Virus record (IMG/VR): IMGVR_UViG_3300038828_000071
Coordinates: 58,536 to 78,535 of that record
Strand: one strand, 5' to 3'
Length of the DNA stretch: 20,000 nt
Source of the DNA: an uncultured virus (IMG/VR IMGVR_UViG_3300038828_000071)
Lineage: Duplodnaviria; Heunggongvirae; Uroviricota; Caudoviricetes
Shown here piece by piece: positions 1-11,844 of this stretch. The notes beneath the pieces are model-generated. The model saw only the letters and a program-made list of their open reading frames with translations, made no database searches and was not told where the DNA came from. Position 1 is the first letter of the stretch. Each line of letters opens with the position of its first letter. The position numbers and the translations under genes are program-made.

Positions 1-62
1 GGTATTAAAGATTCGTATTTCATATTAAAATTATTTTTAAGTTAAAGTCTCGTGTTTCAAAG

Positions 63-96
63 TCGGCAACGAACGCCAACCGCCAAACCGTTAACA
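63..96 (+). repeat. Right half of an attC-like site, left arm presumably outside the window
   Basis: 63-82 TCGGCAACGAACGCCAACCG is identical to 9893-9912 (right arm of site 10) and is followed by GTT at 90-92. Confidence 0.75.
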
Positions 97-1305: not shown

Positions 1306-3009
1306 TTATATTGCTATTGATATTTTAATTAAACTTTCAGCATTAGCTTCTACTAACTTTTTTGCTACTAATGGAACAACTGAATTTCCTATTTGTTTTT
1401 TTTGTTCTGTTTGATTTCCTTTAAGTATATAATCTTTTGAAAAGCCTTGAATTTCTTTCAGTTCTTTTATTAATAACATTCTCATTTTGATATCAATAAT
1501 ACCATAAATAGCCATAAACTCCTTAATCTTTATGGTCATTTCAGAATCATCCTCAAACACTGCAATTGCAATTCTTCCTTGTTCTGCTTCAACAAGATAT
1601 GGAGGTCTTTTATCCATTCTTGCAATCAAAGTGAATGCAGGACGTTCTATGCTTCCACCAGCAGACTTATATTGCGGATTAAGAAGATAGTGCTGTTTTC
1701 TTGATGCTAAAATAGTGCCGTGTGGTTCATCTATCGATTTACCAACGTTACTAAATTGCGTGTCCATTACCCAATGCTCAGCCGTTACAAAATTATGTTT
1801 TGGCGTTGTTGTAACTGTCCCTGCTGGATAATCTATTGAAGTACTGTCAGAATTAGAATAACTCATCATTAAATAAGAGATTTTTGATATTCGATCCTTT
1901 GTTGTTAATGTTTGAGCAGGTAATTCAACTTCTCTATTTGTGCCATTTCCGTAATAAGACGACAGAAAATGTGACTGAACGAATGCATGATGATCTGATG
2001 TGGTTATAGTTCCAGCGGGAAGTTCTATATCTGAAACCTTTCCTTCAGGTCTGCCGGAATAGTATTTTTTTATAAATGCAGCTTTCACAATTCCAATACG
2101 TCCTTGTGTGCTAATAGTTGGGCATGGTTCATCAACTCCTGGTGGATTATGATGTCCTGATTGATTTATTGAATTGTACTTTAAAATCCATTTGTCCTTT
2201 CCACCTGCAACAAACTTTACTAATCCGGCATGTATTCTCTTTAATGTCGCATCTGAAAGTGGAATTTTTCTATCAAATATANNNNNNNNNNTGCCTTCTA
2301 TGTCAAAGTCTAAAACTTCTTTTACTGCTTTCCATGGTTTTTTATTATATTCAAAAAGATTTCCCATTTCTTTTTGTTTTTTTCTCGGATCATAGTGAGT
2401 TGTTTCTGGAAATGCTATTGGAAGACCGTGTTTTGCAAATATTCCGAAGTATCTATCTCTGGATGTGTATGCGCCAAAGTCGGCTGCATTTAGCATTTTC
2501 CAATTGTAATTATATCCCATGTGCTGCACAGTACGCACCCAATACATATAGTCGCATCCTTTATGCATATCTACTGGACGTCCGTTATTATCTAATTTTC
2601 CCCAAGACATAAACTCTCTGACATTTTCAATATATAAGTAGTCCGGGTTCAAATGCTCCAGGTACATCATTAAATCCCAAGCCAATGTGCGACTATCTCC
2701 GTCACGTGGTAAGCCGCCTTTTGCTTTACTGTAATTTGTACATTCAAGAGAAGCCCAAATATTGATGTAGCAATCCGGTTCTGCGAGTTTTAATTTATCA
2801 ACCAAAACCTTTAAATGTTCAACTACTTTAAAATCACGAATATCTTCCGTAAAATGTAAAGTTTTTGGATGATTTGCTTTGTGTGATGCTATTGCTTTTG
2901 CATCGTGATTAACACAAGCTACAACATCTAATCCTGCCAAATGGATTCCGGTAGAAGTTCCACCAGCTCCGGCAAACAAATCTATCCAGTAAATTTTTGG
3001 AGTTTCCAT
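1306..3009 (-). CDS. C5 cytosine DNA methyltransferase (Dcm-like, phage type)
   Basis: Motif I DLFAGAGG, catalytic motif IV variant SLECTNYS, motif VI ENV, motif VIII SRDR, motif X GNSV. The ORF spans an N-gap. Confidence 0.93.
   Translation of the reverse strand: METPKIYWIDLFAGAGGTSTGIHLAGLDVVACVNHDAKAIASHKANHPKTLHFTEDIRDFKVVEHLKVLVDKLKLAEPDCYINIWASLECTNYSKAKGGLPRDGDSRTLAWDLMMYLEHLNPDYLYIENVREFMSWGKLDNNGRPVDMHKGCDYMYWVRTVQHMGYNYNWKMLNAADFGAYTSRDRYFGIFAKHGLPIAFPETTHYDPRKKQKEMGNLFEYNKKPWKAVKEVLDFDIEGXXXXIFDRKIPLSDATLKRIHAGLVKFVAGGKDKWILKYNSINQSGHHNPPGVDEPCPTISTQGRIGIVKAAFIKKYYSGRPEGKVSDIELPAGTITTSDHHAFVQSHFLSSYYGNGTNREVELPAQTLTTKDRISKISYLMMSYSNSDSTSIDYPAGTVTTTPKHNFVTAEHWVMDTQFSNVGKSIDEPHGTILASRKQHYLLNPQYKSAGGSIERPAFTLIARMDKRPPYLVEAEQGRIAIAVFEDDSEMTIKIKEFMAIYGIIDIKMRMLLIKELKEIQGFSKDYILKGNQTEQKKQIGNSVVPLVAKKLVEANAESLIKISIAI
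2282..2291. other. Assembly gap (10 N)
   Basis: Run of N inside the methyltransferase gene. Confidence 1.
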
Positions 3010-4715: not shown

Positions 4716-5546
4716 TTAATTATTATTTGTAATTTGATTAATGTACATAAACATATCAGAATACTTTGTTTTAAGATATTCTTCATTACCTGTTCTTGTC
4801 TTTAATAACATCCAGTTCTCGCAAAATTTATCAATGCCTTCTATTTGTCCATGTTTTTTGATATACTCATACATTGCTAAATTTATATAATCATCTTCAT
4901 TTACTGCAGCATCTAATATTTTGGTAGCCATTACATGACCAATTCCTTGTATTCCGGTTATGTTATCAGTAACATCACCAACAAGTAATTGATATGCCAA
5001 ATTACGCTTTGCTTTATTTTGATCTACTAAATGATAATCTCCATTTTTAAAATTATAATGAAGCCCGGGAATTTGTTGCAAATCTTTATCATCAGAAATA
5101 ATAAAAGTATTTTTATTGCAAACCATGGATATCAAATCATCGGCTTCAATATCATCATATTTGAAAACAATTCCATATTTTCTGAATGCGTTAGGTATAG
5201 CTGCTAAATCTTGCATCTTACCATCATACATATAAGGATCAACTTTATCAGTTCTATTGCCTTTATATTTTTTAGTAAATCCAATTTTATCTCTGAAAGT
5301 ATTTTCAGATTTACCGGAAAAGAAAAATACTAAATATTTAAATTTAATAGAATTATTTATTTCGTTTATGATGCTATCAAGAGCTTCATCTACGGTTAAT
5401 TGTTCACCAGTATCTTGTATGTTCTTATAGATACGATAAGTAATTATGTATTTATACTTATCGGCATCAATAAGAGCTACCATATCAGAAGTATTATATA
5501 CTTCTTGTGAGTTTGATGATGTTGGTTTAAATGGTTTAATTTCCAT
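4716..5546 (-). CDS. 5'-3' exonuclease / flap endonuclease (T7 gp6 / T4 RNase H-like)
   Basis: LIDAD, YKGNR, EADD, DKDL and H3TH motif GDVTDNITGIQGIG. Confidence 0.9.
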   Translation of the reverse strand: MEIKPFKPTSSNSQEVYNTSDMVALIDADKYKYIITYRIYKNIQDTGEQLTVDEALDSIINEINNSIKFKYLVFFFSGKSENTFRDKIGFTKKYKGNRTDKVDPYMYDGKMQDLAAIPNAFRKYGIVFKYDDIEADDLISMVCNKNTFIISDDKDLQQIPGLHYNFKNGDYHLVDQNKAKRNLAYQLLVGDVTDNITGIQGIGHVMATKILDAAVNEDDYINLAMYEYIKKHGQIEGIDKFCENWMLLKTRTGNEEYLKTKYSDMFMYINQITNNN

Positions 5547-5578
5547 AATTATTAATGTTTATTATTTATTATTTAACT

Positions 5579-5614
5579 TATAAACGAACCTGTACTTCGT
5601 TTACAGAGATGTTA
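5579..5614 (+). repeat. Array-heading site copy 1 (candidate attI-like site)
   Basis: 35/36 identical to 8100-8135; internal hairpin TAAACGAA/TTCGTTTA; ends in the GTT that begins cassette A. Confidence 0.7.
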
Positions 5615-5623
5615 TGTGCCATT

Positions 5624-5863
5624 TTAAGAGCCGACACTGAAAATGATACGCCTTACAACTCCATCTGAATTTATTTTATCAGATTGTGCCATCACAATGC
5701 GTTCAGTATATCCTTGCTTGCTTTCATTCCATACCCATTTCTGTCTGTTGCCATCATAGTCATACAATATTCCTTCTATTTCACAAATTTTAGTACAATC
5801 ATCTATTTTTGTACTCATTTGCATAACGTCACCACCAGCGACATAAAATTCGGTTTTTATCAT
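5624..5863 (-). CDS. Cassette A hypothetical protein (MIKTEF..., 79 aa)
   Basis: ATG at 5863 preferred over GTG at 5905. Bounded by GTTATGTGCC (5611-5620) / GGCACATAAC (5891-5900). Confidence 0.7.
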   Translation of the reverse strand: MIKTEFYVAGGDVMQMSTKIDDCTKICEIEGILYDYDGNRQKWVWNESKQGYTERIVMAQSDKINSDGVVRRIIFSVGS

Positions 5864-5893
5864 TTCAATTAAGATTTGTGAAGAAAAAACGGC

Positions 5894-6024
5894 ACATAAC
5901 AGCACCTAACCAAAATTGGCGGTTTAGTGGTTATATCAACGTTTCTGCTTCGGTTTAACATTATTTTATATTCAAGTTTTGTGCTTCGTAATCGCCAACT
6001 TCGGTTAGCTGCAAAACGTTAGCG
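5894..6024 (+). repeat. attC-like site 1 (131 bp)
   Basis: ACATAAC...GTTAGCG; arms CTAACCAAAATTGGCG (5906-5921) / CGCCAACTTCGGTTAG (5993-6008). Confidence 0.85.
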
Positions 6025-6048
6025 GTAATGTAAAAGATACCGCCTAAA

Positions 6049-6456
6049 CTATTCGTATTTAATAAATAATTCATTTACTTTTTCTTCTAATTCGTTTAAA
6101 AAAGTAGTGTTTAGAATTTGTTTTAATCTATCTTTTTCAAATTTTTCATTACCATTCCAAAAAGAAATTGAAACGCTTTCTTTTGAGTTTATATAACTGA
6201 TTTTATCAAACCAAAAATTAAACTGAACATTTTTTTTAGGAAATTTTAAATGATAAGATAGATTGAAGTTGTTATCTATTTGTCTCCAAAATTCATAGTT
6301 AACAATTTTAATTCCGTCATTATAGCTTTCACTTGCATTTGGAAATTTAGACATAAACTCTCTAAATCTATTTTCAGTAAGCAATACACTACCGCTAACA
6401 CTCGTTTGCACGCATTGCGGTTTTTGTGGTTCAATGATATTTTTATTTCGCATCAT
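6049..6456 (-). CDS. Cassette B hypothetical protein (135 aa), starts inside site 2
   Basis: Cassette ends GTTAGCGGTA (6018-6027) / TACCGCTAAC (6390-6399). Confidence 0.7.
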   Translation of the reverse strand: MMRNKNIIEPQKPQCVQTSVSGSVLLTENRFREFMSKFPNASESYNDGIKIVNYEFWRQIDNNFNLSYHLKFPKKNVQFNFWFDKISYINSKESVSISFWNGNEKFEKDRLKQILNTTFLNELEEKVNELFIKYE

Positions 6457-6525
6457 ATTTATTTTTAAGTTGAAAATTTGTCGTTACGAACTCCGCAACG
6501 ACGAGCAAGCGAGATAACGTTACCT
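6393..6525 (+). repeat. attC-like site 2 (133 bp)
   Basis: Arms CTCGTTTGCACGCATTGCGG (6401-6420) / CCGCAACGACGAGCAAGCGAG (6493-6513); GTT at 6519. Confidence 0.8.
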
Positions 6526-6531
6526 GCAAGG

Positions 6532-6747
6532 CTACTCATCCGTTTCAAAATCACATTCCAATTCATCTAACAAAATGGGGTGAATACTATTTGCTTCAAA
6601 TCCACTTTCATTTGCAGCATCATAAACCATCATTTCCCAATCCTCGACCAGTTTGTTAATCTTACGTTTGAAATTTTTAAACTGCTCTTCCGTAATAGGT
6701 TTGTCAGTTTCAAAGTCAAAATTTAGTGTTCCTGTAATTGTTGCCAT
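6532..6747 (-). CDS. Cassette C acidic hypothetical protein (71 aa)
   Basis: Cassette ends GTTACCTGC (6519-6527) / GCAGGTAAC (6792-6800). Confidence 0.75.
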   Translation of the reverse strand: MATITGTLNFDFETDKPITEEQFKNFKRKINKLVEDWEMMVYDAANESGFEANSIHPILLDELECDFETDE

Positions 6748-6793
6748 TTTATTGTTGTTTAAAAATTAAGTTCCTACTGATAAACCGCCCAGC

Positions 6794-6887
6794 AGGTAAC
6801 AGCGGTTTGGCAAAAGCTGCCAGAAAGTTTTGTGCGAAAATTCAAGTTCCCGTTAGGCAGCCTTCGCCAAGCCGCAAAACGTTAGGG
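6794..6887 (+). repeat. attC-like site 3 (94 bp)
   Basis: Arms GCGGTTTGGCAAAAGCTGCC (6802-6821) / GGCAGCCTTCGCCAAGCCGC (6856-6875). Confidence 0.88.
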
Positions 6888-6892
6888 TGCAT

Positions 6893-7165
6893 TTAAGACA
6901 CCCCAACCAATTCGCAACTTTTGAAAAATTCGTCCATTTCAGACTTATTCTCAAACTTTACTTTTAAACCTTCGACAATTCCTTCTTCGGTTCTGGGTTT
7001 TACGATTGTTAGCCAATGCCCGTCAGAACAATGACAAGTATCAATTCCGCAACCGCCATTGTCTTGGCTCATTACAATTTTCCCTTTTGTTTCAACTGCT
7101 CCAGCTTCATTTTCAAAAGTTCCGTCAGGTTTTACACCTTCCCATTTAAAAGACTCTATTTTCAT
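6893..7165 (-). CDS. Cassette D hypothetical protein (90 aa, CxxxxCHC motif)
   Basis: Cassette ends GTTAGGGTGC (6881-6890) / GCACCCTAAC (7184-7193). Confidence 0.75.
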   Translation of the reverse strand: MKIESFKWEGVKPDGTFENEAGAVETKGKIVMSQDNGGCGIDTCHCSDGHWLTIVKPRTEEGIVEGLKVKFENKSEMDEFFKSCELVGVS

Positions 7166-7186
7166 TTTGATTTAAATAAAAACGCA

Positions 7187-7316
7187 CCCTAACAAAGTAT
7201 AACCAAAAGCGGGGCGACATTCGCAAATTGGTAATTTGTGCTGCTAATTAACTTTGTACCGAAGGATAAGGCAGCAGCACTTAATCCCCGCCTTCGGTTA
7301 TACTCGACCGTTATGT
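7187..7316 (+). repeat. attC-like site 4 (130 bp)
   Basis: Arms AGTATAACCAAAAGCGGGG (7196-7214) / CCCCGCCTTCGGTTATACT (7286-7304). Confidence 0.88.
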
Positions 7317-7568
7317 GGCATTATAACAAATCAACCGAACTGCTTTCCAAAATCCGTGTTGTTTAATTAAATTATCCACATAGTGTCTATCTGGCGAGTG
7401 TCCTTCACTTCCGTATATATTATACAAATAAGATGGATAGCACTTTGAACGAAAAGAATAACGCCACATAACACGCAATATAAGTAACCAATGGTGTAGT
7501 GGTTTATTCAAGTTCTGTTTTTCAATTTTACGTTTCATATAATTTGATATTAAGTTTTTCAAAATCAT
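7311..7568 (-). CDS. Cassette E hypothetical protein (start 7568 or 7538, both inside site 5)
   Basis: Cassette ends GTTATGTGGC (7310-7319) / GCCACATAAC (7463-7472); the stop codon is the TAA of the core. Confidence 0.55.
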   Translation of the reverse strand: MILKNLISNYMKRKIEKQNLNKPLHHWLLILRVMWRYSFRSKCYPSYLYNIYGSEGHSPDRHYVDNLIKQHGFWKAVRLICYNAT

Positions 7569-7596
7569 TGGCTACTCATATTGCCATCCGTTATAT
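7466..7596 (+). repeat. attC-like site 5 (131 bp)
   Basis: Arms GCAATATAAGTAACCAATG (7475-7493) / CATTGGCTACTCATATTGC (7566-7584). Confidence 0.88.
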
Positions 7597-7602
7597 GCCA
7601 GT

Positions 7603-8061
7603 TTAAGAAACGTACTGCGAACATATTGCAATTACTTTTTGACATTGTTCTACATCAAACATTCCTATATGACATAAATCACGTTCAATGTTCATCTGTT
7701 TACTTAGCCATAAATAAGCCTTATTCCTATTTCCTAAATTAGGTATAAACTCTTTCCAAATCTTATTTATCAATCCTGTTTTAGCTATTTGGTCAAAGTA
7801 ATAATGAGCCTGTTTCTTTGCGTCCCTAAGTTCTTTATTTGCTAATCTCCCTAAGGCATTATCAGTTCCTTTATGTACACCAACGTAAGCATCACATGGC
7901 TTACAAATATAAATCATACCATAACTTTTACCATAAACAAATGAACTATCTATATACTCGGTTTTTGAGCCACAATAAGGGCAAATAAAACCGGCATATA
8001 ACACACGGTCATCAGCAATATTTGCCGTGCTTTGTGGATTATTTTCTGCTAATTTTGTCAT
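7603..8061 (-). CDS. Cassette F zinc-finger protein, DUF3268-like
   Basis: CPYCG...CKPCDAYVGVH...LGRLA...AH...AYLWL...HIGMFD pattern. Cassette ends GTTATATGCC (7590-7599) / GGCATATAAC (7993-8002). Confidence 0.8.
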   Translation of the reverse strand: MTKLAENNPQSTANIADDRVLYAGFICPYCGSKTEYIDSSFVYGKSYGMIYICKPCDAYVGVHKGTDNALGRLANKELRDAKKQAHYYFDQIAKTGLINKIWKEFIPNLGNRNKAYLWLSKQMNIERDLCHIGMFDVEQCQKVIAICSQYVS

Positions 8062-8099
8062 TTGTTTTTCAATTAATATTATTATTTAATTATTTCGAG

Positions 8100-8135
8100 T
8101 ATAAACGAACCTGTACTTCGTTTACAGGGATGTTA
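8100..8135 (+). repeat. Array-heading site copy 2, in place of the right arm of site 6
   Basis: Near-identical to 5579-5614; not complementary to the left arm at about 8003-8030. Confidence 0.7.
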
Positions 8136-8151
8136 GCGGAGATTGTTCTAA

Positions 8152-8355
8152 TCACGTTTCAAAAGACGAAATAAAATTGTAAATTTCTTCAACTTTATCA
8201 ATATCAATCTCGTTTTTAAATTCATAATTAAAAACTACTTTTTTATTACTTGATTTAATTTCTTTTGTAAATAAGTTTAAAGATAAACATCCTTTAATAT
8301 ACCAATTTCCTGCTTTATGATAACCAAGATTTTGTAATTTTTCAAATAATAACAT
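8152..8355 (-). CDS. Cassette G second gene, hypothetical (67 aa)
   Basis: ATG ORF overlapping the upstream gene by 14 nt. Confidence 0.65.
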   Translation of the reverse strand: MLLFEKLQNLGYHKAGNWYIKGCLSLNLFTKEIKSSNKKVVFNYEFKNEIDIDKVEEIYNFISSFET

Positions 8356-8521
8356 TTTTCTGTTTTTTATTAATTAAACTTTGCGCAGCTCTTTTTGTTT
8401 TAGTAGTGGAGTTTGAACCTTTCCACAACCACATTGCATAATCAAAATCATTGTCAACTATCCAACTTATCAATTTGCCTTTATATTTTCCAAATTGTGC
8501 TTTTTGTTCTTCTGATTTCAT
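8342..8521 (-). CDS. Cassette G first gene, small FGKYKG-motif protein (DUF3820 / exonuclease X C-terminal-like)
   Basis: FGKYKGKLISWI...DYAMWL; ATG at 8521. Cassette ends GTTAGCGGAG (8132-8141) / CTCCGCTAAC (8550-8559). Confidence 0.7.
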   Translation of the reverse strand: MKSEEQKAQFGKYKGKLISWIVDNDFDYAMWLWKGSNSTTKTKRAAQSLINKKQKNVII

Positions 8522-8552
8522 AAAAAATTCCTTATTAACGACCCACAACCTC

Positions 8553-8685
8553 CGCTAACAGCAGTTACACAAGATTTGGGTTTTAGGTTTTCTGTATTCA
8601 TTGTTTTGTACTTTTAAATATTAGTGATTAATCGAAGATTTAGGCTTACTTTTCCCAAACCTCGTGTAGCTGCGAACCGTTAGCC
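8553..8685 (+). repeat. attC-like site 7 (133 bp)
   Basis: Arms GCAGTTACACAAGATTTGGG (8561-8580) / CCCAAACCTCGTGTAGCTGC (8654-8673). Confidence 0.88.
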
Positions 8686-8691
8686 GCAAGC

Positions 8692-9039
8692 CTAAGAAAC
8701 AACCTGCAACAAATCAGCATTCTCAAAAATATTTCCGACAACTTTGTTTAAGTTACCCAGACTATTCGCAAGCGACACAATACGAGTTTCATCATCAAAA
8801 TAGCGACAATACCAAGCGGCTTCATCTTCATTCCAGTAAACAATTTGCAATGCCTTTGTGTCGCAATTTTCAATTATATCTCCTTCGTAAACTTCCGTTC
8901 CGTTTATCTGTGCATCTTCCCTGCCAGTAAATTGCATTACTTCTATTTCAGGATGTTCGTTGTCGTATGGCAAAATTGACCTGTAAACCATTTTTGACAA
9001 TGCCTTGTCGTAAAATCTGAATTTAATTTGTCTGTTCAT
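8692..9039 (-). CDS. Cassette H YopX family protein
   Basis: IKFRFYD...MQFTG...EVYEGDI...VVGNIFEN signature. Cassette ends GTTAGCCGC (8679-8687) / GCGGCTAAC (9066-9074). Confidence 0.9.
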   Translation of the reverse strand: MNRQIKFRFYDKALSKMVYRSILPYDNEHPEIEVMQFTGREDAQINGTEVYEGDIIENCDTKALQIVYWNEDEAAWYCRYFDDETRIVSLANSLGNLNKVVGNIFENADLLQVVS

Positions 9040-9067
9040 TTTTATTGTTGTTGTGAGAAAGGCCAGC

Positions 9068-9163
9068 GGCTAACAGCGGTTTTGCAATAGCCGCCTGACA
9101 GTTCTCGGTTAATAATTAAGTTCATTCTTTGGCGGCCATCGCAAAGCCGCCCAAACGTTAGCG
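9068..9163 (+). repeat. attC-like site 8 (96 bp)
   Basis: Arms GCGGTTTTGCAATAGCCGCC (9076-9095) / GGCGGCCATCGCAAAGCCGC (9131-9150). Confidence 0.88.
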
Positions 9164-9169
9164 GCAACC

Positions 9170-9520
9170 CTAAGAGTGCCACTCGGTAACATCGAACTCC
9201 GATGGAAGTAACCCAAGTTGTTTGCCATTTTCTAAAATAGCAGAAACAGCACCGTAGGAATTAACCCATACATAATACTCACCATCTTTTAAGGCTATGG
9301 TATCTTTTTCAATTCCTAAAATTGGTGCAAATTCCATTAAATCAGGTGTAACAGTTTTAGCCAATTTTACTTTTAAAGGAACTCTACCCCGAAAATTTGC
9401 AGGATATGCAGATCTGCCTTTTCTATCCGATTGCCATTTTAAAGCGGGAGAAGTAAGGGCAGCCGCTAACATCTGCTCATACGTAAGCGGGTTTTTAGTG
9501 GTAATTTCAAGTGTGTTCAT
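9170..9520 (-). CDS. Cassette I hypothetical protein (ATG at 9520 inside site 9)
   Basis: Cassette ends GTTAGCGGC (9157-9165) / GCCGCTAAC (9462-9470). Confidence 0.7.
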   Translation of the reverse strand: MNTLEITTKNPLTYEQMLAAALTSPALKWQSDRKGRSAYPANFRGRVPLKVKLAKTVTPDLMEFAPILGIEKDTIALKDGEYYVWVNSYGAVSAILENGKQLGLLPSEFDVTEWHS

Positions 9521-9595
9521 ATAATTTAAGTTATTAAAGTTTGACAAATTTGTATTTCAAAATCCCCGCCTACGCATAGCAGACGGGCGTTATGC
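9464..9595 (+). repeat. attC-like site 9 (132 bp)
   Basis: Arms TCTGCTCATACGTAAGCGGG (9472-9491) / CCCGCCTACGCATAGCAGA (9565-9583); one extra C in the left arm. Confidence 0.85.
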
Positions 9596-9850
9596 TCCAT
9601 GCCCTCCGACCCTCGTGTTCCAACTTTCAATACAAGTTTTAGCACACCATTCAGCATCGTGCCTTAATGTTGCATCTGTCCTTTCAACCCTACAATGCGA
9701 GCCAGTGCATTTAATTGTAACTTTTCTGCTTTTAGTAGATTTATTTCCTATAAATGTTATCTTAGGCTCGCATCCGCAAAATGGGCACGGGAGCATAACA
9801 TCGGCTAAAAAAACATTGCCGTTATTGTCGCTATATTCAACTTTCTGCAT
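9590..9850 (-). CDS. Cassette J Lar-like (restriction alleviation) zinc-ribbon protein
   Basis: LPCPFCG...C....C...WNTR pattern. Cassette ends GTTATGCTCC (9589-9598) / GGAGCATAAC (9790-9799). Confidence 0.75.
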   Translation of the reverse strand: MQKVEYSDNNGNVFLADVMLPCPFCGCEPKITFIGNKSTKSRKVTIKCTGSHCRVERTDATLRHDAEWCAKTCIESWNTRVGGHGA

Positions 9851-9924
9851 CTTATTTAATTTTAGTTGTTAATGAAAATTTATCTTTATAAATCGGCAAC
9901 GAACGCCAACCGTCAACGTTAGCG
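9793..9924 (+). repeat. attC-like site 10 (132 bp, degenerate pairing)
   Basis: CGG...CATTGCCG pairs partly with CGGCAACG...CCG; correct length and cores. Confidence 0.65.
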
Positions 9925-10128
9925 ACAATTCTTAGCAACTGTAAGAACCCACTTTAGTTGTTCATCATCCAACCATCTGGGATATACTTGTCCAGCCTTT
10001 GTTTCTTTATAACTTTTATTGTATTCAGCGAAAAGTGCATCAATGAATTTTACATCATCAAAAGAACTGTCGCTAACAGCACCTATACCCAATTGGGCAG
10101 TTTCGTTGTTTTTTGAAGTTTCTTCCAT
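9919..10128 (-). CDS. Cassette K hypothetical protein (69 aa)
   Basis: Cassette ends GTTAGCGACA (9918-9927) / TGTCGCTAAC (10068-10077), 15/16 when extended; stop lies in the core. Confidence 0.7.
   Translation of the reverse strand: MEETSKNNETAQLGIGAVSDSSFDDVKFIDALFAEYNKSYKETKAGQVYPRWLDDEQLKWVLTVAKNCR
10071..10105 (+). repeat. Left half of attC-like site 11, right arm missing
   Basis: CGCTAACAGCACCTATACCCAATTGGGCAG resembles the site 1 left arm (TAACAGCACCTAACC); no complementary arm before the GTT at 10288. Confidence 0.6.
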
Positions 10129-10149
10129 TTTATTAAGTTTATTTGTTAT

Positions 10150-10251
10150 TCAATGAATTGAATCTATTACCTCGCCATATACTGAATGAGGCAATCCATA
10201 AATCCAACCATCTGTACCCGCTATTTTTGCTCTAAATTTTATTTGTTTCAT
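10150..10251 (-). pseudogene. Truncated YopX-like N-terminal fragment (33 aa)
   Basis: My translation: MKQIKFRAKIAGTDGWIYGLPHSVYGEVIDSIH*, with the IKFRA...WIYG YopX start. Not in the ORF track. Confidence 0.65.
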
Positions 10252-10307
10252 TTGTTTTGTTTTAAGTTGTTATTCGTTTATGTGTATGTTATGTGCAATA
10301 AATTTTA

Positions 10308-10532
10308 CTACCCTATTGCATAACCAGAATTTTCTTGTTCCGAAACTTCCTTTGGTTTATTAATACCTACACAAGCCAATATCTTTTCAGCAGCATCCCT
10401 ACTTTGCCAAAAATCAGGATGTGCAATTACCCTAATTTCATCATCCTCATAAATAGCACTTATCTGTTCAATTATCTTAATAATTTGCATACGCTTGTGT
10501 ATGTATTTTTTTGTTTTTGTTTTTGTGTCCAT
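10308..10532 (-). CDS. Hypothetical protein (74 aa)
   Basis: ATG ORF following the last GTT core at 10288. Confidence 0.65.
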   Translation of the reverse strand: MDTKTKTKKYIHKRMQIIKIIEQISAIYEDDEIRVIAHPDFWQSRDAAEKILACVGINKPKEVSEQENSGYAIG

Positions 10533-10741: not shown

Positions 10742-11844
10742 TATAGTAAAGGCATTAATAATGTAAAATTTTCTGAATCATCAGAATTAATAATAATTGC
10801 ACGATTACCATCGGTGATATTTATATTTACAATTTTAGAATCAATTGCTTTTATACAATTCAAAAATAATTCATGACTAAATGTTTTAGAAATGGCATCA
10901 CCATTAAAAAGTATAAACGGACAATTTACTATTGCACTTTTTGCAAAATCAATATCTAAGCATGAAATATTTAATTCATTATAAATTTTTTCAAATAATA
11001 CTTTTTTAGTATTTGGTAATGCCCATTTAATTCGATTTAATGAATTTATTAATTCATCTTTTTGTACCTTAATAACAGAAACAAACTCTTTAGGAATAAC
11101 AGATTCATAATTTGGAAATTTACCATTTATAAGCCTTGAATAAATTACTGATTTATTTATCTCAAATTTTAAAGTTTGATTATTAAATGACATAATCAAA
11201 TTATCTACTCCTGGTTCTATCAAATTAGTAATTGCAGGAATAGAAGATTTGGGCAATAGCACATTAAATTCTTTTTCTAAATCTAATTTAATTTTTGATA
11301 AAATTAAAACATGTCCATTAGTAGCCACAAATTTTAAATCCTTTTCTTTCGATTCTAAATAAACACCCATCATAGAAGCTCTTAATGGATCATTACCGGT
11401 AAACTTTTCTGATGATAAAAGAATATCAGAAAGAGTTTTTGCATCAATAACAGTTTGATTTTGAAAATCATCATTATTTAATCTTGGAAATAAATTCTCT
11501 GTCATAGTAGCTATTTCAAATGTACCTTTTGAATGCTTAAATACTATTACAAGATTATTCATGAAAACAGATATTTCTTCATTTTTCAATGTTGATAATC
11601 CTTTTTCCAATAATTCATAATTGATTAAAAAGGAAGCTGATTCTTCAGAATCAATATCTTTTGCAACATCGATATTTAATATGATATCAGTTTCTAAATC
11701 AGTTCTCCTAACTGACAAATCGTTTCCTTTTAAATCAAAATGAACACCATTTAGATAATCTAAAGTTGCGCTTAATTTAATTTTATTCGTTTTTTTAATT
11801 GCTTTTAAAAGCGACTCTGAATTTACTTTAAATAAATTTTTCAT
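10741..11844 (-). CDS. dnaN: DNA polymerase III beta sliding clamp
   Basis: 367 aa; RTDLE, VATNGHVL, SRLINGKFPNYESVIP and C-terminal LLMPL. Confidence 0.92.
   Translation of the reverse strand: MKNLFKVNSESLLKAIKKTNKIKLSATLDYLNGVHFDLKGNDLSVRRTDLETDIILNIDVAKDIDSEESASFLINYELLEKGLSTLKNEEISVFMNNLVIVFKHSKGTFEIATMTENLFPRLNNDDFQNQTVIDAKTLSDILLSSEKFTGNDPLRASMMGVYLESKEKDLKFVATNGHVLILSKIKLDLEKEFNVLLPKSSIPAITNLIEPGVDNLIMSFNNQTLKFEINKSVIYSRLINGKFPNYESVIPKEFVSVIKVQKDELINSLNRIKWALPNTKKVLFEKIYNELNISCLDIDFAKSAIVNCPFILFNGDAISKTFSHELFLNCIKAIDSKIVNINITDGNRAIIINSDDSENFTLLMPLL

Follow-up and report, generated by a model that had tools for sequence, protein, structure and literature searches.

We analysed a 20,000-nucleotide (nt) stretch of an uncultured virus, hereafter the window (positions 58,536 to 78,535 of IMG/VR record IMGVR_UViG_3300038828_000071), which closes a linear virus record of 78.5 kb that has a completeness rating of 99%. 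The phage is crAss-like according to Pfam, as its genome encodes Crassvirus capsid, muzzle and tail ring proteins, and every gene in the window is carried by the minus strand. The window contains an array of eleven contiguous cassettes, A to K, joined by hairpin-forming sites, and the subject of this study is a set of six open reading frames (ORFs) that begin inside these sites and run across the site core into the cassette. We read the locus, with a probability of roughly 0.8, as an integron-like array, its cassettes being mobile and its sites supplying translation starts and shared leaders to the cassette genes.

Eleven cassettes with private complementary ends

The array, its cassettes and the flanking genes are laid out below; cassette ends are written GTTA+X...X'+TAAC, and loci fetched in the searches are cited by L numbers.

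5547..10148, minus strand: whole cassette array, A-K with end elements, made of eleven contiguous GTTA+X...X'+TAAC pairs
5611-5900, minus strand: body of cassette A, with private GTTA+X...X'+TAAC ends and a gene with its own start
6018-6399, minus strand: body of cassette B, GTTAGCGGTA ... TACCGCTAAC, with private inverted-repeat ends
6519-6800, minus strand: body of cassette C, gene with its own start
6881-7193, minus strand: body of cassette D, gene with its own start
7310-7472, minus strand: body of cassette E, the ORF stop being the TAA of the terminal core (7311-7313)
7590-8002, minus strand: body of cassette F, DUF3268 zinc-ribbon protein (Pfam E 1e-36, domain from amino acid (aa) 26)
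8132-8559, minus strand: body of cassette G, gene with its own start
8679-9074, minus strand: body of cassette H, YopX-like gene with its own start
9157-9470, minus strand: body of cassette I, with homologues in L120, L211 and L212
9589-9799, minus strand: body of cassette J, Lar-like restriction-alleviation family (Pfam Lar, aa 19-80), stop on the core TAA
9918-10077, minus strand: body of cassette K, without an in-frame ATG or GTG past the core, stop on the core TAA
5578..5610, no strand assigned: array end element TATAAACGAA-N7-TTCGTTTACAGAGAT, immediately followed by the first GTTA (5611)
4716..5546, minus strand: FEN-like (5'-3') exonuclease gene flanking the array
10150..10251, minus strand: truncated YopX-like ORF at the other flank, a 33-aa N-terminal fragment
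10744..11844, minus strand: DNA polymerase III beta-like gene beyond the array

In all eleven units X and X' are mutually complementary and private to their own unit, and each cassette matches its own inverse core with at least 5-6 perfect bases beyond GTTA/TAAC and over 14-25 nt at 72-94% (11/11 cassettes). The ten intercassette sites, which measure 80-129 nt between TAAC and GTTA, fold over long range into imperfect hairpins whose loops are AT-rich. When 64 short sites of the window and of viral contigs were aligned, they gave a 16-bp consensus stem with three covarying pairs, where the changes essentially split two sub-families, and the spacer between core and stem differed between the arms (1 nt versus 5 nt). 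In A, C, D, G and H the gene begins at a start of its own, 25-45 nt past the core. The ORFs of E, J and K stop on the TAA of the terminal TAAC, and these cassettes are therefore coding throughout. At the 3' ends of A, F, H and I (5624, 7603, 8692 and 9170) a Ser codon and stop (TCT TAA/TCT TAG, within a common TCTTAR motif) stand 13 nt before the core at the TAAC end, a common layout by which the cassette end also shapes the C-terminus; stop offsets of -16 and -4 prevail in other loci as well.

A short perfect hairpin, TATAAACGAA-N7-TTCGTTTA, followed by AGRGAT directly before GTTA, is present in three copies (window 5578-5610 and 8101-8131, genome 58309-58338). Two of these lie at array ends upstream of backbone gene starts and the third within the F/G site, which gives the impression of two arrays joined at this point. 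In window 10078-10251 the first site of the array in gene direction is without a 5' arm and abuts the 33-aa YopX-like fragment, and a degenerate GTTATTCAAT...ATTGCATAAC pair lies near the array boundary at 10145-10324; the boundary at this truncated K site looks like a break inside the loop at an internal TAAC.

Probable start codons and leaders inside the hairpin sites

For B, E, F, I, J and K an earlier note, made from the letters of this sequence, had proposed that the ORF starts inside its own attC-like site and crosses the left arm and core. The ORFs and their sites are as follows.

6049..6456, minus strand: ORF B, crossing the core at the plus-strand TAAC end 6399
7311..7568, minus strand: ORF E, with a second ATG at 7538, crossing the core at TAAC end 7472
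7603..8061, minus strand: ORF F, crossing the core at TAAC end 8002
9170..9547, minus strand: ORF I (TTG start, ATG at 9520), crossing the core at TAAC end 9470
9590..9850, minus strand: ORF J, crossing the core at TAAC end 9799
9919..10128, minus strand: ORF K, crossing the core at TAAC end 10077
6400..6518, minus strand: hairpin site 5' of gene B, loop ATGs 6456/6453, leader MMRNKNIIEPQKPQCVQTSV through the 3' arm
7473..7589, minus strand: hairpin site 5' of gene E, loop ATG 7538 in the better context and 7568 in a poor one, leader MKRKIEKQNLNKPLHHWLLILRV
8003..8131, minus strand: composite site 5' of gene F, ATG 8061, leader MTKLAENNPQSTANIADDRV, small hairpin at 8003-8030 and end-element copy at 8101-8131
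9471..9588, minus strand: hairpin site 5' of gene I, loop ATG 9520, leader MNTLEITTKNPLTYEQ, second in-frame ATG over the core (9472)
9800..9917, minus strand: hairpin site 5' of gene J, loop ATG 9850, leader MQKVEYSDNNGNVFLADV, in-frame ATG in the GTTATG core (9796)
10078..10148, minus strand: truncated K-type site with loop, leader and 3' arm kept and the 5' arm missing, ATG 10128, leader MEETSKNNETAQLGIGAV

All six ORFs are present as proposed, with an in-frame ATG 50-96 nt upstream of the 5' core, and cross the 3' arm (in gene direction) as well as the core. The N-terminal peptides quoted for them (PQCVQTSVSGS, AQLGIGAVSDS, LLILRVMWR, FLADVMLPC, ADDRVLYAG and TYEQMLAAA) were found in the translations, and the core is read in the frames described, through a GTT codon (V-S/V-M) in B, E, J and K and a TTA codon (V-L/M-L) in F and I. 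The domains of F and J were likewise located directly after the core (Pfam DUF3268 from aa 26 and Lar from aa 19). A loop ATG is open to the core in nine site frames of the window, six of which run on as cassette-spanning ORFs; at the A, G and H sites the ORF opened by the loop ATG is short and ends 9-13 codons past the core. After the core of window K there is no in-frame ATG or GTG.

Start contexts were scored with a position weight matrix (PWM) derived from positions -25 to +9 of 42 long non-array ORFs of this genome; these genes score 5.2 +/- 4.6 and all ATGs -5.0 +/- 4.5. The contexts of the loop ATGs are gene-like, with scores of 6.4 for K, 5.4 for F, 1.7 for I (ATG 9520), 1.0 for B, 0.7 for E (ATG 7538) and -1.5 for J, whereas those of the core-proximal alternatives (-5.5 to -15.1) are not: Met35 of B scores -5.5, the GTG of F -8.4 and the core ATGs of I, E and J -8.6, -12.9 and -15.1. 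The other upstream ATG of E, at 7568, scores -9.1.

The association of an in-frame loop ATG with read-through of the core is beyond chance. We examined an unselected set of 246 cassettes from the window and 82 viral loci fetched by a pattern taken from a leaderless site, after dropping 14 outer-nested pairs, and 134 of them carried a core-crossing ORF, defined as one that begins open at the 5' core and stays so for 70% or more of the cassette. For 75 of these 134 ORFs an ATG stands in frame 30 nt or more upstream, as against 40/268 in the other two frames (Fisher odds ratio 7.2, p 4e-17, the loci being partly non-independent), and the distances from ATG to core concentrate at 50-62 nt. The core-crossing ORFs divide over the three frames as 59, 59 and 16, which fits the third frame of the GTTAG core reading TAG. 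An excess of the motif CGTTAK (20 versus 11.5 expected, equalled in 2/200 shuffles) was judged too weak and was left unused.

A further proposal of the note, that the loop supplies the start so that unrelated proteins come to share low-information leaders, is supported by related sequences for K, F, B, I and J, that is, all site types but E. A protein-pattern search gave 22 viral contigs with a match confined to the K leader, in 21 of which MEETSKNNETAQLGIGAV or a one-codon-longer variant, started by ATG, is in frame with an ORF of 63-142 aa; by inspection of the translations these represent ~17 different cargoes. In the sole unfused contig (L111) GTA replaces the ATG and a stop follows after 30 codons, and in L027 the K-type ATG is absent and the cargo has its own start. 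In three fused ORFs, a zinc-ribbon protein (L101), a DUF4177 protein (L105) and a Lar protein (L116), the Pfam domain begins at aa 24-29 and the stretch from core to domain is free of ATG; that of L116 holds an in-frame TTG. An exact 21-mer of the F 3' arm matched 10 viral loci, and in all ten an in-frame fusion joins the F leader, MTKLAENNPQGTANIADDRVL or a variant of it, to ORFs of 84-141 aa and ~8 kinds. The B leader is present in three viral loci, in two of which (L126 and L127) it is fused to other cargoes, of 127 aa and at least 249 codons.

The I leader was found in three metagenome contigs, two with the same cargo and one (L210) in which it is fused to a different cargo of 93 aa; all three have an ATG at -50 and another overlapping the core. 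In L120, where a homologue of I lies outside any site, the start falls 16 residues before the SPALK motif, between the two options of the window. For the J site, 5/5 viral loci have an ATG exactly 51 nt before the core, all with a Lar-like cargo, and the loop-encoded codons diverge among the five with length and frame kept; the loop-encoded half of the leaders is freely variable. The E-type site had no match among the fetched loci, and one exact 26-mer of it was unmatched in metagenome contigs. There were also no matches in the protein-pattern search with B, in tblastn of I against phage records or in megablast of the backbone against phage records, and synteny of the flanking FEN protein gave no relatives in viral contigs. 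Non-cassette homologues had been expected to lack the leader; a DUF3268 homologue occurs in 584 phage records, and the four inspected are without the window leader and have 5-16 residues before CPxC.

These patterns suggest how such a cassette may be expressed. In gene direction it consists of a hairpin site and then the cargo ORF, the site running from just after the TAA|C of the preceding core through the 5' arm, the AT-rich loop and the 3' arm to the GTTA core, and the first cargo bases past GTTA are complementary to the last cargo bases before the next TAAC, which often gives the stop codon (E, J, K). The cargoes of B, F, I, J and K, and probably E, would be without an initiation region of their own. 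Initiation would take place in the loop, in a stretch that is A-rich and unstructured, at an ATG lying 50-60 nt ahead of the core, from which the ribosome would read the 3' arm and core as a leader of 17-22 residues and then continue into the cargo. The GTTA core lies at a fixed distance from the ATG, and as the third frame of GTTAG reads TAG, heads and bodies would be held in one of two phases. Since the leaders would be properties of the site family, unrelated proteins would bear the same head. The loop ATG may then be the start in actual use, a prediction from sequence that is strongly supported for K and F, supported for B and I and plausible for J.

Several observations pull the other way. 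The PWM scores are supportive and not independent, because the loops are AT-rich anyway and a good score is partly automatic. In-frame start codons are also available at the core, namely the ATG in GTTATG (E, J), the ATG-TTA of I and the GTG of F, and both the position of the F and J domains right past the core and the short N-termini of the closest non-cassette DUF3268 homologues (5-16 residues) fit a leader added by the site but are equally compatible with a start there. In the Flavobacterium psychrophilum phage 2A type (L001/L125) the B-type leader is a separate 26-aa ORF and the cargo start lies far downstream. Over all sites, 67/160 loop-ATG frames are fused and 93/160 are unfused, stopping soon past the core; start supply is therefore a trait of some site families and not of all. 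Along with the own starts of A, C, D, G and H, the position of the F and J domains, the short homologue N-termini, the unfused B-type leader and the 93 unfused frames favour a longest-ORF artefact, in which the true starts would lie at or just past the core (for B a TTG or Met35), the upstream frame would be accidental and K would be a start-less remnant. We consider such an artefact unlikely, as unrelated cargoes are fused in frame to the K and F leaders in 21/22 and 10/10 contigs, the frame is lost where the ATG is lost (L111, L027), some cargo domains begin ahead of any internal start codon, and the core-proximal starts lie within GC-rich stems in contexts of -8 to -15.

Site ownership, folding strand and recombinase

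The note had also spoken of each cassette's own site, and the hairpin 5' of a gene was indeed found to move with that gene. L104 and L107 have a block in common that extends from the TAAC before the site to the TAAC after the cargo, with unlike flanks on either side. In a neighbour test that used sites picked irrespective of their neighbours, homologous cargo in an otherwise different context lay downstream of the site for 13 informative pairs (6 clusters), compared with a single pair for the upstream side. Runs covering small shares of the window were used for contig boundaries only, and in one of these (X3) a 704-nt contig exactly matches window 8132-8682, that is, cassette G, the plus-strand right-hand site and the next GTTA, with unlike flanks. 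The J site always travels with a Lar cargo in its five viral loci. The linkage of site and cargo is not absolute: one methyltransferase cargo is preceded by a site of 40 nt in L005 but of 118 nt in L020, and L098 and L119 have a cargo in common and differ in the sequence upstream of the 3' arm, both of which add to the adverse points above. The canonical orientation, with the site 3' of the gene, was considered in view of the longer spacer on the gene-sense 5' arm and the orientation that HattCI gave to P12002L_attC1, and was ruled out by the block boundaries and the side on which the recombinase genes lie.

With DNA parameters the gene-sense strand is the more stable one at 10/10 window sites (mean difference 2.2 kcal/mol) and at 43/47 other sites (Wilcoxon p 5e-8), and conserved G:U-type pairs are present in gene sense. 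RNA folds place the AUG in the loop and the last leader codons in the stem. This bias fits recombination of the gene-coding strand and an mRNA hairpin alike. In the array reading, the sites would be recombined as folded single strands.

The folding also suits a regulatory role of the leader ORF, whereby translating ribosomes would melt the mRNA hairpin or couple to the cargo, the fusion being a tolerated by-product and the peptide roleless. Better folding of the gene-sense strand with conserved G:U pairs, the AUG in the loop with leader codons in the stem, the short unfused leader ORFs of the A, G and H sites and of phage 2A, and the free variation of the loop-encoded leader half all agree with this, and attI1 ORF-11 offers a precedent for coupling (review, PMC8876359). 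However, the K and F families are mostly fused with no separate cargo start, and the leader is therefore part of the protein, whatever its other role. We regard a purely regulatory leader as a serious contender, though clearly on the less likely side.

A tyrosine recombinase (PF00589) gave no match in the 78.5-kb, 99%-complete phage genome, which counts against our main reading. A homologous Xer/IntI-like tyrosine recombinase of ~276 aa is present in ten of the fetched loci (6 viral and 4 genome contigs: L187, L069, L158, L060, L047, L143, L190, L017, L072 and L022), with 32-47% identity among loci. Its gene lies left of the array (window plus orientation) in 10/10 loci and on the minus strand in 8, and in five loci the distance from it to the first GTTA/GTAG core is just ~55 nt, of AT-rich sequence. 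This ~55-nt spacer occupies the position of the end element (5578..5610) of the window phage, where the FEN gene stands in the recombinase's place and adjoins the repeated end element. The best solved relative of the recombinase is the Vibrio integron integrase VchIntIA (PDB 2A3V, E 8e-34); the alignment skips IntI4 residues ~180-242, i.e. the enzyme is without the IntI-specific insertion, and its NCBIfam scores of 148-213 bits are under the integron-integrase cut-off of 265. A tyrosine recombinase lies within 10 kb of a site in 2/5 large bacterial contigs (L187, L184). The short site pattern was found in 91 viral stretches and 67 genome contigs, the latter (L133-L199) nearly all titled Bacteroidota (Flavobacteriales, Chitinophagales, Saprospiraceae and others), including some megabase isolate contigs. 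A K-type site was tried as the attI and ruled out, its full-length 118-nt version being found inside arrays elsewhere. An Xer/IntI-like recombinase, encoded in relatives but absent from this phage, may perform the recombination.

If the hairpins were not recombination sites, they might be transcribed regulatory elements (a terminator or processing site plus an initiation region) shuffled by homologous recombination, as proposed for PeSL. These are repeated promoter/stem-loop modules that flank small accessory genes of lytic, T4-type phages and are proposed to mediate shuffling (Arbiol et al. 2010, PMC2839356). The lack of a recombinase in the window phage, the better folding of the gene-sense (mRNA) strand, the exchange of bodies at times independently of both neighbour cargoes and crossovers within the conserved 3' arm (L098/L119) are in keeping with this possibility. 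Homology-driven shuffling leaves the private complementary ends that flank each gene unexplained; moreover, common blocks end exactly at the TAAC/GTTA cores and an Xer/IntI-like recombinase heads the arrays in 10 loci. PeSLs are shuffled by homology and are not known to have cassette-specific complementary ends, fixed cores or coding overlap. Qi et al. (PMC9892861) report that IntI1 recombined an element of the same site system in Polaribacter phage P12002L, and we judge hairpins of a solely regulatory kind to be improbable.

Relation to known systems and wider meaning

Like classical integrons (class 1 and Vibrio chromosomal), the array has attC-type imperfect inverted repeats, ten in number, that form hairpins and are bounded by ...AAC and GTT... 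cores, the first cassette bases pair with their own inverse core (11/11), and in related loci one end of the array is occupied by a recombinase gene together with an attI-like, AT-rich spacer. Unlike the classical cassette, in which an ORF is followed by attC and the non-coding strand recombines, the window-type site lies 5' of the gene and the gene-coding strand folds better. The spacers of 1 nt and 5 nt, the array-linked recombinase without the IntI insertion and the sites that give start codons and leaders are further differences, and no IntI-type integrase is found beside the array in the window phage or in the related loci. The system is integron-like in its working, yet it departs from the definition of an integron in the type of integrase and in the position of the site relative to the gene.

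The closest known systems are the clusters of attC sites without an integrase (CALINs) reported in virulent phages, in particular Polaribacter phage P12002L (Qi et al. 2023, Front Microbiol, PMC9892861). That article describes two predicted P12002L sites 'with divergent directions', both cloned (supplement Table S3), of which one site called by HattCI belongs to the site family of the window; the array-end element recombined with attI1 under IntI1 (section 3.4) and the hairpin site attC1 gave no recombinants. In P12002L we found GTTA+X ... X'+TAAC units around minus-strand methyltransferase genes, a repeated array-end element and a short TAAC-...-GTTA hairpin with the loop CATTAAAACGA, which is common to L005. 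With ten hairpin sites and no integrase, the window array is a candidate CALIN; it resembles that of P12002L as an integrase-less array in a virulent-type phage and differs from it in having 11 cassettes, as against two predicted sites. In the parts of the article consulted, neither start codons within sites nor leaders common to several proteins are described, nor are cassette ends of the private kind, inverted cargo or a recombinase that goes with the sites.

Within attI1, ORF-11 (and ORF-17/18) is a site-embedded initiation region that aids cassettes without one (PMC8876359, a review that also deals with fused cassettes). As in the window, a recombination site lets ribosomes enter and bears a short ORF, to the benefit of any cassette that follows. 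ORF-11 acts by translational coupling from a single fixed attI and has its own stop, whereas the window site ORFs continue in frame, encode part of the protein and occur at many array sites; a short site ORF ending before or overlapping the cassette start is not the arrangement of the six window ORFs, of the K fusions (21/22) or of the F fusions (10/10). A limited literature search found no description of recombination sites that supply start codons or shared leaders, in integrons or in phages.

A more specific picture, which we put forward tentatively and rate a little below even, is that of an inside-out integron-like system in Bacteroidota-type phages. The folded site would be a 5' expression head (initiation region, start and leader of 17-22 aa), the cargo a start-less body joined to it at GTTA in one of two phases, and the catalyst an Xer/IntI-like enzyme without the IntI insertion acting on the gene-coding strand, borrowed by integrase-less phages from co-resident elements. 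Heads and bodies would meet at a fixed GTTA in two phases, so that recombination could re-pair both in frame, and such re-pairing would be the counterpart of exon shuffling in viruses of prokaryotes.

Provided that the loop starts are in use, a site of site-specific recombination doubles as a portable translation start and protein N-terminus, and start-less cassettes could be expressed anywhere in the array with no need of a common promoter-proximal position. Families of unrelated phage proteins with identical heads are then predicted, and annotation is concerned as well, because the choice of start codon shifts N-termini by ~20 residues. Integron-like gene exchange would extend to crAss-like and other Bacteroidota phages, with cargo of the counter-defence type (Lar-like here, DNA methyltransferases in relatives), and the system lends itself to testing, with defined cores, two phases, a candidate recombinase and cultured relatives.

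A second locus, with a single cassette, spans window 1-95 and genome 58301-58630 and has the same end element, TATAAACGAA...TTCGTTTATAGAGAT joined to GTTATGTGCA, as well as a hairpin of J/K-like type; here too the ORF opens within the loop, with its ATG at window 23, and crosses the core in the TTA frame. Near it lies a gene like Tad2 (Thoeris anti-defence 2) at genome 57588-57938 (L124:17588-17938, Pfam E 5e-25), which together with the Lar-like cassette J suggests that accessory genes here serve counter-defence. In an RNA-labelled run (X13) a 329-nt contig matches cassette H at window 8714-9042 with one difference, and further RNA-labelled contigs span the K-type leader region with unlike flanks; both may be DNA carry-over. 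A run of N at ~2290-2300 (read as XXXX) breaks a 567-aa C5 cytosine methyltransferase ORF (1306..3009), and the phage genome also encodes a Cpn60/GroEL-family chaperonin (L122:12938-14587, Pfam E 7e-49).

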